Notes: generated from the sequence alone by a model not told the origin. Shown: positions 38,109-53,867, numbered from the stretch's first letter. The stretch is DNA of 64,000 nt from an uncultured Actinomycetota bacterium (GCA_963718235.1 CAVQYR010000001.1:288001-352000), one strand, 5' to 3'. Numbers and translations are program-made.

Positions 38109-38178
38109 CCAAGTTGATCATGCAGAAGTTGCGGTCCCAGGAGGTCGAACCGGGAGATCATGTCCAAGATCAACTTGG
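38109..38178. repeat. Solo hairpin element (REP/MITE-like), related to 51568 and 52657 elements
   Basis: CCAAGTTGATC...GATCAACTTGG ends; 38113-38178 aligns ungapped at 51/66 with 52657-52722. Confidence 0.85.
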
Positions 38179-50230: not shown

Positions 50231-50251
50231 CCGGTGTGGGAGAGCGGTGAC

Positions 50252-51538
50252 ATGAGACCAACGATGACGCTGGCCGAGATGTTCGTCCGCGTGGCCGGGC
50301 TGCCCGAGGGCGTGCGCTTCGAGGGGTACGACGGCAGCTCCTCGGGACCGTCGGACGCCAAGGCGACGCTGATGGTGCGTCGTCCCGAGGCGCTGGAGTA
50401 CATCATCCGGGCCCCGACCGACCTCGGGCTGGCCCGGGCGTACGTGACCGGTGCGCTCGAGGTCGAAGGCGACCTGCACCACCTGATCGCGGCACTTCTC
50501 CCGAGCCGGGCGCAAGGTGTTCGGTGGCGCGAGCTGGCCGCCCTGGTGCCCGCGTTCCGCCAGCTGCTGCCTTTGACGCTCGCCCGGCCGCCCGTTCCGG
50601 AGACTGAGGCACCGCCGCGCTGGCGTCGGGGTCTGGTCCGGCACTCGAAGGGACGCGACGCGGAGGCGATCTCCCACCACTACGACGTGTCCAACACGTT
50701 CTACGAGATGGTGCTCGGTCCGTCGATGACCTACACCTGCGCCGTGTACCCGACCGCCGGGGTGTCGTTGGAGGAGGCGCAGTACGCGAAGTACGAGCTG
50801 GTGGCGCGCAAGCTCGACCTGCAACCGGGCATGCGACTCCTCGACGTGGGCTGCGGCTGGGGCGGCATGGTCATGCACGCAGCGATGCACCATGACGTAC
50901 GGGCGATCGGCGTCACGCTGTCGCGCCAGCAGGCGGAGTGGGCCGCCAAGGCGATCGCCGACCGCGGGCTGTCGGACCGGGCCGAGGTCCGGTTCATGGA
51001 CTACCGCGACCTGCAGGAGTCGTCGTTCGACGCGATCAGCTCGATCGGGCTGACCGAGCACATCGGGCAGGACAACCTGCAGCCGTACTTCCACGGACTG
51101 CTCGAACGGCTGCGCCCGCAGGGGCGCCTGCTCAACCACTGCATCACCCGGTCGGTCCCGGGGCGTCCGGCCCGAGCGAAGGCGTTCATCGACCGCTACG
51201 TCTTCCCCGACGGTGAGCTGGAGTCACCGGGCTACATCATGGAGGCGATGAACGGCGCCGGGTTCGAGATCCGGCACTCGGAGAACCTGCGCGAGCACTA
51301 CGCGATGACCCTGCGCGACTGGGGGGTCAACCTGGAGCAGCGGTGGGATGAGGCGGTGGCGGAGGTCGGGCTGGAGCGCGCGCGGGTGTGGCGGCTGTAC
51401 ATGGCGGCGTCGAGAGCCGGTTTCGACACCAACCAGATCCAGCTGCACCAGGTGCTCGGGGTGAGGCCCAGCCGGTCCGGCCGTTCCCGTGGCCCGGTGA
51501 ACAGCGGATTCCCCCTGCGCCCCACCTGGCTCTCCTGA
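50252..51538 (+). CDS. Cfa-family SAM-dependent fatty acyl methyltransferase (Rv3720/TmsB/BfaB-like)
   Basis: HHYDVSN.FY, MTYTCA, LLDVGCGWG, FIDRYVFPDGEL. Confidence 0.88.
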   Translation: MRPTMTLAEMFVRVAGLPEGVRFEGYDGSSSGPSDAKATLMVRRPEALEYIIRAPTDLGLARAYVTGALEVEGDLHHLIAALLPSRAQGVRWRELAALVPAFRQLLPLTLARPPVPETEAPPRWRRGLVRHSKGRDAEAISHHYDVSNTFYEMVLGPSMTYTCAVYPTAGVSLEEAQYAKYELVARKLDLQPGMRLLDVGCGWGGMVMHAAMHHDVRAIGVTLSRQQAEWAAKAIADRGLSDRAEVRFMDYRDLQESSFDAISSIGLTEHIGQDNLQPYFHGLLERLRPQGRLLNHCITRSVPGRPARAKAFIDRYVFPDGELESPGYIMEAMNGAGFEIRHSENLREHYAMTLRDWGVNLEQRWDEAVAEVGLERARVWRLYMAASRAGFDTNQIQLHQVLGVRPSRSGRSRGPVNSGFPLRPTWLS

Positions 51539-51561
51539 CCCCTGACCCCTGACCCCTGACC
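51534..51561 (+). repeat. 7-bp tandem repeat (CCTGACC x4)
   Basis: First unit contains the stop of the methyltransferase gene; lies next to the hairpin element. Confidence 0.9.
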
Positions 51562-51567
51562 CCCTAC

Positions 51568-52722
51568 CCAAGTTGATCTTGGACTTGATGTGCCATCTCA
51601 ACCTGTTTGGCCGACATCTTCTGCATGATCAACGCGAGCCAGGACGACGCCGGCGTCCACCTGGCTCTTGGGTGAACGAGAAGTCCGGGTGGCCGGTCCA
51701 GCCCCGGGCGCGTAGCGCGGCGGCCACCGGCTGGACCACCGTCTGCGGCGATCGGAGCATGTGCTGCTCGAGGTGGACCACCAGGAAACCGGCCTCCTGC
51801 AACCGGTTGCGCCGGTCCAGGTCGTCGGCGTACTGGTCGGCGTCTCGGTGGTAGCGCCCCTCGTACTCAACGGCTATCCGGTACTCCCGGATGCAGAGGT
51901 CGACCCGGGCGACGAACCGCCCGCCCGGGTCGGTGATGACCACGTTGGGCTCGGCGGCCGGCAGCCCGGACAGGTGGAGCCACACCCGCACAATGCTCTC
52001 CGGCGGCGACTCGGCGCGGGCGTCGAGCAGCTGCGCCGCCCGGCGCGCCGTGAGAATGCCCCGACGGCGGGTGCCCCTGCCCACGATTGACTCGATGTCC
52101 GGCTGCGTGGCCTGCCCGCTGCGCAGCGCCGCGTCGCCGAAGGCCACCAGCTGCTCCAGGCGCAGAGTCGGCGCCAGGTCCATGAACGCGCGGGCGGCCG
52201 AGACGACCGGCACGCCGTCCACCTGGGTGACGTGTTCCGGTGGAAGCCAGCACCCGTGGGAGGTCACCTGCTGACGCCGGGTCACGGTGGCTTCGCGCGG
52301 TACGGCGACGTGCAGCGGCTCCCGCTCACTGACGAAGACCGGCAGGCTCAGCAGTCGGGCACCGGTGCTCAGGCAGAACGCCGACCCGCTGGGCAGCACC
52401 TGGGTGAGCGCCTGGCAGCGGGTGAGCAGGGTGTCCTCGGTGTCGGCGGGCAGGTAGACGTCGCGGCTGAGCCGGCGGAACCGTCGTCCGCGCAGCTGGC
52501 TGGCCGTGACCCCTGGGGGGAGGTCGCTGGCTCGAAGGATGGAGGTTGAGGTCATGCCGCACCCTGAGGCTCCTGGCCGCGGCGCACGGCTGCCCGCCTG
52601 AGCGCTGTGGACGACGGAGCCGTTCACCGGCTCGCAGTCACCCCGCCCCCGCCAAAGTTGATCAAGCAGAAGATGAGGGCCAAACACGTTGAGGTGGCAC
52701 ATCAAGTCCAAGATCAACTTGG
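51568..52722. mobile_element. Putative hairpin-bounded element carrying an AbiEi-like/DUF559 nuclease gene
   Basis: 66-bp inverted repeats 51568-51633 and 52657-52722 (61/66 identical) enclosing one gene. Confidence 0.6.
51629..52555 (-). CDS. AbiEi-like N-terminal region + DUF559/Vsr-like PD-(D/E)XK endonuclease
   Basis: RRLSRDVY, VDGVPVVSAARAFMDL, AESPPES..R, VDL..IAVEYEG.YH, D..RRNRLQ.AG. Confidence 0.85.
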   Translation of the reverse strand: MTSTSILRASDLPPGVTASQLRGRRFRRLSRDVYLPADTEDTLLTRCQALTQVLPSGSAFCLSTGARLLSLPVFVSEREPLHVAVPREATVTRRQQVTSHGCWLPPEHVTQVDGVPVVSAARAFMDLAPTLRLEQLVAFGDAALRSGQATQPDIESIVGRGTRRRGILTARRAAQLLDARAESPPESIVRVWLHLSGLPAAEPNVVITDPGGRFVARVDLCIREYRIAVEYEGRYHRDADQYADDLDRRNRLQEAGFLVVHLEQHMLRSPQTVVQPVAAALRARGWTGHPDFSFTQEPGGRRRRPGSR

Positions 52723-52742
52723 ACGCTGGGGGTGGAGGTGGG

Positions 52743-53744
52743 TCAGATCCAGCGCTTGCGGCGGAAGACGACGTACAGGGTGCCGCTCATACCCACCCAG
52801 ACCAGCGTGCTGGTGAAGAAGCCGGCCGGTTGCAGGAACCCGGGGTAGGGCACGTTCTGCCCGTAGAACCCGGTCACCGCCGTGGGGACGGCGATGATGG
52901 CCGCCCAACCGGTGAGCTTCTTCATCACCGTGTTCAGGGTGTGGTCGGCCATCGCCAGGCGGGTCTCGTAGATCGTGGTCAGCAGGTCGCGCAGGCCCTC
53001 GATCGAGTCGTTGACCCGCAGGACGTGGTCGTACACGTCCTGGTAGTACGGCATCAGCCCGGGCTGGACCGGCGTCGGGTCGTCCTCCTCGCGCCGCATC
53101 AGTCCGCTCACGAGCTCGCGCATGGGCTGGGCGACCCGGCGCAGCCGCACGAGCGACTTGCGCGTGGCGAAGCCACGACGTTGGAGGTCACGGGGGTCGT
53201 CGTCGACCGAGGCCGGGCCGTCGAAGAGGAGGTCCTCCATGCGGTCGACGTCGTCGCCCAGGGCGTCGACGGTGTCCAGGTGGGAGTCGACGACCAGGTC
53301 GAGCACGGCGTACAGCAGCGCCGGGCTTCCGTACTTCAGAAGCTCCGGGTGTTCGCTCCACCGCTCAGCCAGCTCTCGGTGAGTGAAGCCGTGGGCCCGG
53401 TTCACCGCCACGACCCAACGGCTGGAGACGAATACGCCGATGTCGGCCAGCCGGAGAGCCCCGGCCTCGTCCAGCGAGGTCCGGTACAGGTAGAGGAAGG
53501 AGTAGCCGGGGTAGCGGTCGAGCTTGCTGCGCTGGCCCATCTCTACCGCGGGCGGCGCGGGTTTCACTGCGTCGTCGACGGAGTGGTGGTGCAGGCCGAG
53601 CGGCTCGGCCAGTCCGGAAAGCTCTCGAGGCTCGACCTCGAACCACACGCACGTTCCCGGCTCGTGAAGGGCCTGGAGCCCCACGTTGAGCGAGGCGGAC
53701 TCAGTGCTCAGTGCTCCGTCGCGCAGGATCCGGACCGTGGCCAC
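52743..53744 (-). CDS. corA: CorA family Mg/Co transporter
   Basis: QRSKLDRY, YQDVYDH, MKKLT, TGFYGQNV. Confidence 0.9.
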   Translation of the reverse strand: MATVRILRDGALSTESASLNVGLQALHEPGTCVWFEVEPRELSGLAEPLGLHHHSVDDAVKPAPPAVEMGQRSKLDRYPGYSFLYLYRTSLDEAGALRLADIGVFVSSRWVVAVNRAHGFTHRELAERWSEHPELLKYGSPALLYAVLDLVVDSHLDTVDALGDDVDRMEDLLFDGPASVDDDPRDLQRRGFATRKSLVRLRRVAQPMRELVSGLMRREEDDPTPVQPGLMPYYQDVYDHVLRVNDSIEGLRDLLTTIYETRLAMADHTLNTVMKKLTGWAAIIAVPTAVTGFYGQNVPYPGFLQPAGFFTSTLVWVGMSGTLYVVFRRKRWI

Positions 53745-53867
53745 GCCCCTACCGTAGAGCCCCTCACGGCCGCAGGGGCCTGCGTCGCGGCGGGGCATCG
53801 TCACCCGAAACCTCGGTGGTCTCCTGGCGGCCGTATAGTTTCGTTGCCGCTCGAACCAGGGTGCGTT

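Follow-up and report, generated by a model that had tools for sequence, protein, structure and literature searches.

A predicted nuclease gene framed by hairpin repeats between cfa and corA in an uncultured actinobacterium, and its counterparts across Actinomycetota

In the genome of an uncultured member of the Actinomycetota, a single gene for a DUF559-type nuclease lies between two copies of a short hairpin sequence, in the junction of two convergent genes: a cfa-type gene (Pfam CMAS, E 4.9e-94) and corA (Pfam CorA, E 4.7e-39). The window analyzed is a stretch of 64,000 nt (G000:C1:288001-352000) from a genome, here G000, of 3.17 Mb and 70% G+C, assembled in two contigs and 95% complete. The framing arms (51568-51633 and 52657-52722) form an inverted repeat of 66 nt that is complementary at 61 of 66 positions (92%), the two being 1023 nt apart; each contains a 62-bp core that starts with GTTGATC and ends with GATCAAC. 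The cores are 47% and 48% G+C, compared with 72% for the enclosed gene and 70% for the window. Only one long open reading frame (ORF) is found between the arms: it is on the minus strand, encodes 308 amino acids from an ATG at 52555, and has its TGA stop (51631-51629) within the terminal heptamer of the left core. No target-site duplication is seen at the ends of this unit, nor when two clean empty sites are used for comparison. An initial annotation of this DNA had described the 61/66 match, the AT-richer elements, the one enclosed gene with its stop in the left element, the convergent neighbors and the lack of a clear target-site duplication, all of which hold.

The protein is predicted to be a fusion of an AbiEi-like winged-helix module (residues ∼1-190) with a Vsr/DUF559-type PD-(D/E)XK nuclease (∼200-285). 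Pfam places DUF559 (PF04480) at residues 218-281 with 22.2 bits against a cut-off of 20.6, and also reports MTES_1575; in the genome-wide scan, too, DUF559 exceeds its cut-off. The AlphaFold model has a predicted local distance difference test score (pLDDT) of 92 and a predicted template-modeling score (pTM) of 0.90; Foldseek aligned residues 1 to ∼190 with the AbiEi antitoxin 6y8q (E 3e-4) and with Rv2827c (1zel), and the C-terminal 100 residues with I-Bth0305I (3r3p, TMt 0.73), NGO0050 (3hrl, TMt 0.66), Vsr (1vsr) and 1cw0. When a family profile was run against the PDB, 3hrl (2.3e-5) and 3r3p (4.5e-5) were recovered. None of the Pfam AbiEi models reached an E of 0.01 on the 308-residue protein, NCBIfam returned no family for it, and GIY-YIG was not among the Pfam and fold-search matches. 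The predicted catalytic residues are intact. S183, E186, R190, D219, E230, Y231, G233, D245 and R248 are invariant in 63 relatives and present here, as is H236, which is nearly invariant (at least 90% of the 63). The motifs AESxxES and EY(D/E)GxxH, which the initial annotation had singled out, occur as RAESPPES and EYEGRYH on invariant columns of the family alignment.

The unit is an insertion between two housekeeping genes, present in G000 and missing from a genome of the same genus, G001. This emerged from a comparison of the cfa-to-corA stretch with 20 relatives, a search for an empty site that the initial annotation had proposed. In G001 the cfa TGA and the corA stop are separated by 6 nt, with neither gene nor hairpin; the missing stretch corresponds to window positions 51539-52742 and comprises both hairpins, their outer C-rich and G-rich arms, and the gene. 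The hairpin family is absent from G001, even with three mismatches permitted on the left arm, and no homologue of the 308-residue protein was detectable there with this query. At a second site (C1:55788) the G001 spacer measures 26 nt as against 16 + 62 + 17 nt in G000, and therefore the arms arrive together with the core. Pre-existing terminator hairpins were considered as targets for insertion and rejected for the two clean empty sites in G001 (6 nt and 26 nt), which are without C-rich or G-rich arms. The cfa-corA junction of a further relative, G003, holds only a small hairpin of 26 nt. For the remaining f1 genomes, no nuclease-gene match falls between the matches to cfa and corA, which are close together.

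The pairing of gene and hairpin recurs across Actinomycetota with lineage-specific hairpins, an association that had been put forward at the outset and that extends to a second paralogue in G000 (see below). The closest homologue (46% identity), from an unpublished genome of another family (G033), is framed by GTTGATC hairpins of 63 and 62 bp and has its stop codon inside the downstream one. In a scan with one genome per species, 80 of 345 homologue loci were kept (titled Geodermatophilus, Modestobacter, Blastococcus, Pseudonocardiaceae, Arthrobacter and others) and the 76 with full flanks were tested. A repeat common to the upstream and downstream flanks was found at 50 of the 76, at 45 with a length of at least 20 bp and at 19 with at least 40 bp. 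Windows shifted 900 bp outward yielded a common repeat in 4 of 70 cases, none reaching 20 or 40 bp; mismatched loci yielded 5 of 76, with four of at least 20 bp and none of at least 40 bp. The flank repeats are long palindromes in which stems are conserved and loops free, the two copies being either direct or inverted. The median distance from the stop codon to the start of the downstream repeat is 7 nt (29 of 45 within −10 to +30 nt, a few stop calls being unreliable); upstream repeats end a median of 149 nt before the start of the tblastn match, a size comparable to the 101-nt spacer in G000. In these genomes, too, the flanking hairpins belong to dispersed families. A Jiangellales metagenome-assembled genome (MAG) has 15 copies and two Geodermatophilus genomes have 4 to 5; the arms were counted 5 to 81 times per strand in five genomes with loci titled Pseudonocardiaceae, Pseudonocardiales or Actinomycetota MAGs (among them the unpublished G046), and 13/20 times in an Arthrobacter genome. 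A scan of metagenome contigs with a single protein query found no relative.

The same relationship is evident when approached from the hairpins. At least five GTTGATC-type hairpins are present in 36 of 401 genomes of the class, the maximum being 146. Five genomes from five families were picked on GTTGATC hairpin count alone: in three of the five a homologue is framed by hairpins on both sides (5 loci) and in the other two a hairpin is found on one side. Six further paralogues in these genomes lie between repeats of other kinds, longer than 50 bp. A genome from another family, G308, contains 141 GTTGATC hairpins and three paralogues framed by them (61/59, 71 and 72 bp).

Different paralogues have different hairpins. 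The second paralogue in G000 (G000:C1:471681-472722, 317 amino acids) is 28% identical to the first and has the same domains, with DUF559 above the Pfam cut-off and AbiEi_4 (24.1 bits vs 25) and AbiEi_1 (21.1 vs 22.2) just below; AbiEi_4 and AbiEi_1 domains are also carried by relatives, according to precomputed Pfam annotation. It is framed by a palindrome of 53 bp, different from the 62-bp core, of which there are ∼6 to 8 solo copies in G000. One Pseudonocardiales contig likewise contains two paralogues, each with different hairpins. One hairpin family per paralogue fits a dedicated partnership. A third, partial homologue is found at G000:C1:160432-160914 (35% identity over residues 99-260); near it there is no hairpin of either family, the flanks matching over 14 nt only.

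The features of the junction are listed in Table 1. The four tandem heptamers of the C-rich arm (51536-51563) begin with the cfa stop codon itself and thereby place a TGA in all three frames before the left hairpin. On the other side, the G-rich outer arm pairs with the C-rich inner arm in the extended fold of the right copy. No sigma-70-type promoter consensus was found in the 101-nt leader, and a consensus scan revealed neither a terminator-like T-tract nor a promoter; a scan of 51000-53300 against Rfam, with E up to 1, gave two chance-level matches, neither of them on the hairpins.

Table 1. Features of the cfa-corA junction, with a solo hairpin elsewhere in the window.
Feature	Position	Strand	Remarks
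cfa-like cyclopropane-fatty-acyl-phospholipid/mycolic acid synthase gene	50234..51538	+	left neighbor; TGA stop 51536-51538; Pfam CMAS
C-rich outer arm of unit	51536..51571	+	four tandem TGACCCC heptamers, then on to ...CCCAA
Left 62-bp hairpin core, canonical orientation	51572..51633	+	GTTGATC...GATCAAC; contains nuclease-gene stop
AbiEi-like + Vsr/DUF559-type nuclease gene (predicted), 308 amino acids	51629..52555	-	Pfam, AlphaFold, Foldseek
Leader/promoter spacer, 101 nt, upstream hairpin to ATG	52556..52656	-	distal 52640-52656 is C-rich inner arm of right hairpin
Right 62-bp hairpin core, inverted relative to left	52657..52718	-	5 positions differ from left core
G-rich outer arm, abuts corA stop codon	52719..52742	+	sequence reading and fold
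corA magnesium transporter gene	52743..53804	-	right neighbor; stop 52743-52745; Pfam CorA
Solo copy of 62-bp hairpin, with C-rich and G-rich arms	38113..38174 (G000:C1:326113-326174)	-	pattern and profile search

The two framing hairpins belong to a dispersed family. The pattern GTTGATC-N48-GATCAAC, which the initial annotation had proposed as a genome-wide search, has 22 exact occurrences in G000, far more than chance would give, and the reversed control pattern does not occur at all (0); an nhmmer profile built from the exact copies finds ∼28 loci, of which ∼26 besides the cassette pair are gene-less solos. The ends of the core are conserved among these copies and the center is variable. 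In most copies the core comes after a C-rich run whose last bases are CAA, and before TTG and a G-rich run; in single-copy folds these arms usually pair, giving a hairpin of ∼95 nt. The apical stem is retained across copies although its sequence varies from copy to copy, and a consensus fold of the flank-extended copies (RNAalifold, with RNA parameters) shows just a short local stem. In many solo copies TGAC and a C-run are found 12 to 20 nt ahead of the core.

Of the 28 copies, 24 are within 61 nt of the 3′-end of a predicted gene, most of them directly behind stop codons. Ten copies occupy the gap between genes that converge, in many cases directly abutting the stop codon on either side. The orientation of solos relative to the upstream gene in tandem contexts (8 co-oriented, 4 anti-oriented) is uninformative. 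Where G000 has the solo hairpin C2:859868, G001 has ∼870 bp of extra sequence (G001:C339:5916-6788), apparently an additional gene. Two regions of G000 contain further closely spaced copies: at G000:C1:623968-624745 the right copy is degenerate and a small cNMP (cyclic nucleotide monophosphate)-binding-domain gene adjoins a GntR/FCD regulator gene; at G000:C1:181531-182087 the copies are 495 bp apart, and a hydrophobic ORF has its ends set by stops inside the hairpins. In keeping with the initial annotation, which had seen no canonical transposase, PF01797 (RAYT, the REP-associated tyrosine transposase; REP, repetitive extragenic palindromic), the sole transposase family searched, has no match in this 95% complete genome. 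The core of integron attC sites is GTTRRRY, which the hairpin ends resemble; attC sites were rejected as an explanation given that the polarity of the two end motifs is reversed and the copies are scattered rather than arrayed, no integrase search having been made.

Hairpins with the same ends and a different center are found in G005, a genome of the same family and a different genus: 46 copies at N48, 54 with a looser gap. In the center of the G005 hairpin the GTTGATC end is repeated internally. At the cfa-corA junction of G005 there is one hairpin, with no second, and a ∼190-bp remnant of the 3′-end of the nuclease gene (56% identity, residues 246-297). Hairpins thus persist without the gene, because G005 retains them without an intact copy. 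Six of 43 G005 hairpin sites examined are occupied in G000 too, and at many of the rest G000 has a clean empty site. Six common sites are more than we would expect by chance, and fit either insertion at hot spots or old vertical inheritance. A macrodomain or partition-site role, raised by the clustering of G000 copies in parts of the contigs, was dropped, the G005 copies being on five of seven contigs. A search of sequencing runs returned no RNA run, and the best DNA runs contained at most 0.41 of the sampled words.

Short repeats and small nuclease genes are each known from several systems that bear comparison. Miniature inverted-repeat transposable elements (MITEs), Correia elements and Rickettsia palindromic elements (RPEs) are short, AT-richer and intergenic, have terminal inverted ends, and are patchy among close relatives. 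The hairpins described here have these features, but differ in that no target-site duplication is seen, that a search limited to PF01797 among transposase families gave no parent insertion sequence whose ends match, and that the repeats are consistently associated with just one gene, for a nuclease rather than a transposase. The N-terminal 190 residues share the fold of AbiEi type IV antitoxins (6y8q; Rv2827c, 1zel); in contrast to AbiEi/AbiEii, there is no AbiEii nucleotidyltransferase adjacent, a C-terminal nuclease is fused, and dispersed repeats frame the gene. By profile and by fold, the catalytic domain resembles those of I-Bth0305I and other EDxHD Vsr-like homing endonucleases and of NGO0050 (3r3p, 3hrl), which likewise occur in selfish-element contexts. 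However, the gene here is intergenic rather than within an intron, intein or host gene, complete hairpins and not the halves of a target site lie on its two sides, and its product has the AbiEi-like N-terminal module.

The closest parallels are with REP-RAYT and Ssn-SRM. In the former (PMC3479197, PMC3686654, PMC3733652, PMC5581495), a single-copy nuclease-type gene is framed by short palindromic repeats, tens more of which are intergenic and mostly behind 3′-ends; the repeat classes are lineage-specific, with one class per paralogue. The differences are that the framed gene here is AbiEi-like plus DUF559 and not an HUH/Y1 transposase (PF01797), that the repeats are longer (a 62-bp core, ∼95 nt with arms), that the host belongs to the Actinomycetota, and that the cores end in GTTGATC/GATCAAC and not in the GTAG or CGTC tag (PMC3733652). 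For Ssn, Chenal et al. 2025 (PMC11893778) describe a small nuclease gene flanked on both sides by a cognate hairpin in 42% of homologues, gene-repeat pairs that co-vary with stems kept and loop sequence free, and scattered sites (NTS/SRM repeats) shown to mark self DNA or restrict incoming DNA. A hairpin-flanked nuclease gene, repeats dispersed in many copies, covarying gene-repeat pairs, and kept stems with free loops are common to Ssn-SRM and the cassettes described here. Unlike the 308-residue, two-module protein with a predicted PD-(D/E)XK nuclease found here, Ssn is a single-domain GIY-YIG protein (cd10448) of ∼94 amino acids, and the SRM hairpins are 20 to 50 nt.

Taken together, these analyses suggest that the stretch between cfa and corA is probably a self-contained nuclease cassette framed by its cognate hairpins, working in the manner of REP-RAYT or Ssn-SRM with a PD-(D/E)XK enzyme. 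Each of the three computational checks suggested in the initial annotation had an outcome favorable to its proposal. Binding, cleavage and the route of spread are steps that we infer: the winged-helix module would recognize the palindromic arms, probably by their conserved GTTGATC/GATCAAC ends; the hairpin, or DNA close to it, would next be nicked by the nuclease domain; and this activity would serve to preserve, copy or mobilize the hairpins and the cassette. A more far-reaching proposal, which we offer tentatively and with less confidence, is that such cassettes could represent a third independent nuclease-hairpin class in Actinomycetota, after RAYT-REP and Ssn-SRM: an AbiEi-type reader and a Vsr-type nickase would act on GTTGATC-ended and other lineage-specific palindromes that are multiplied to as many as ∼146 per genome and placed precisely at stop codons, where they may double as terminators and spare stop codons. 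Each paralogue would then be a nuclease specific for both structure and sequence, programmable, and with its natural target known. No description of hairpin-flanked DUF559 cassettes was found in the open full-text literature on DUF559 (subscription journals not covered).

Several observations weigh against the cassette reading. The initial annotation had described each element as an imperfect hairpin; by folding energy alone the left copy is the only one that is clearly hairpin-like (DNA fold of −11.1 kcal/mol, z −3.05, matched or bettered by 2 of 200 shuffles), and the description does not stand by this measure for the right (−6.0 kcal/mol, z −0.77, matched or bettered by 40 of 200 shuffles). 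At 26 of the 76 loci the simple flank test found no common repeat, and these include the four closest genome homologues, at two of which degenerate palindromes are visible. The proposed pairing of hairpin and gene, while it recurs at homologues, is not exclusive in G000: the cNMP-binding gene lies within an inverted hairpin pair (C1:623968/624684), and between the copies of a direct pair (C1:181531/182026) there is an unannotated ORF of 153 amino acids with no Pfam match. In G005, 46 to 54 hairpins are accompanied by a gene remnant only, no other close homologue having been found, and old vertical inheritance of the sites common to G005 and G000 would argue for low mobility. The positions of genes around solo copies are from our own crude ORF calls. 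Finally, the cassette hairpins lie just as solos do, 33 nt behind the cfa stop (left) and 24 nt behind the corA stop (right): hairpin position alone does not tie the pair to the nuclease gene, because solos occupy such places too.

This last point, together with the 24 of 28 copies near 3′-ends and the other genes enclosed by hairpin pairs in G000, is what could be said for plain coincidence, that is, for ordinary solos of the cfa and corA 3′-ends with an unrelated DUF559 gene between them. We regard this as highly improbable. G001 lacks the gene and the hairpin pair alike, retaining 6 nt; homologues in other families show the same arrangement with hairpins of other sequences (50 of 76, against 4 of 70 in controls); and in many lineages the stop codon is in or next to the downstream hairpin. 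Coincidence is largely refuted by the G001 site, the flank test and the reverse test taken from the hairpins. A different possibility is that the hairpins act in cis, serving an AbiEi-like gene (perhaps with a defense or toxin-antitoxin-like role) as its operator and terminator. The gene would be autoregulated, its product binding the hairpins and so controlling its own synthesis, with the solos being terminators or decayed cassettes and the nuclease moving nothing. AbiEi represses its own promoter by binding inverted repeats. The resemblance of the N-terminal 190 residues to AbiEi (6y8q, E 3e-4) and Rv2827c is in accord with such a role, as are the upstream hairpin ∼100 nt before the start codon, the downstream hairpin at the stop codon, and the terminator-like places of the solos at gene ends. 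It nevertheless seems unlikely: the cassette has a single gene without an AbiEii-type partner, tens of lineage-specific solos absent from a genome of the same genus are unlike ordinary terminators, neither a terminator-like T-tract nor a promoter consensus was found, and a conserved nuclease active site needs a substrate.

It could also be that the nuclease uses the hairpins without spreading them, either as a homing-type selfish gene aimed at a repeat family that something else disseminates, or as a host-serving, site-specific enzyme whose scattered sites mark self DNA or restrict incoming DNA. The match of its domain to the homing endonuclease I-Bth0305I (profile 4.5e-5, fold TMt 0.73) would suit the former; for the latter there is the example of SsnA, a hairpin-flanked GIY-YIG nuclease that cuts single-stranded DNA near its hairpins (PMC11893778). 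The hairpins that G005 retains without an intact gene also speak for this reading. We nonetheless consider a nuclease that plays no part in dissemination to be improbable. Whole hairpins rather than half-sites flank the gene, unlike homing insertion into an enzyme's own target; no RAYT or other candidate mobilizing enzyme was identified, RAYT being the one transposase family searched; and each paralogue has its own hairpin family and solos, as a dedicated partnership would lead one to expect.

Actinobacterial genomes abound in DUF559/AbiEi-like genes, which are routinely annotated as hypothetical, endonuclease or antitoxin. To our knowledge no substrate is known for these proteins. A gene tied to its own framing hairpin would provide a testable DNA target for every member of the family. 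A nuclease cassette of this kind would also explain short dispersed repeats found class-wide (at least five hairpins in 36 of 401 genomes, one with 146), and would be the third enzyme chemistry among the few systems in which a repeat is accompanied by its caretaker. As with the Ssn family, its members would be candidates for structure-specific nucleases.

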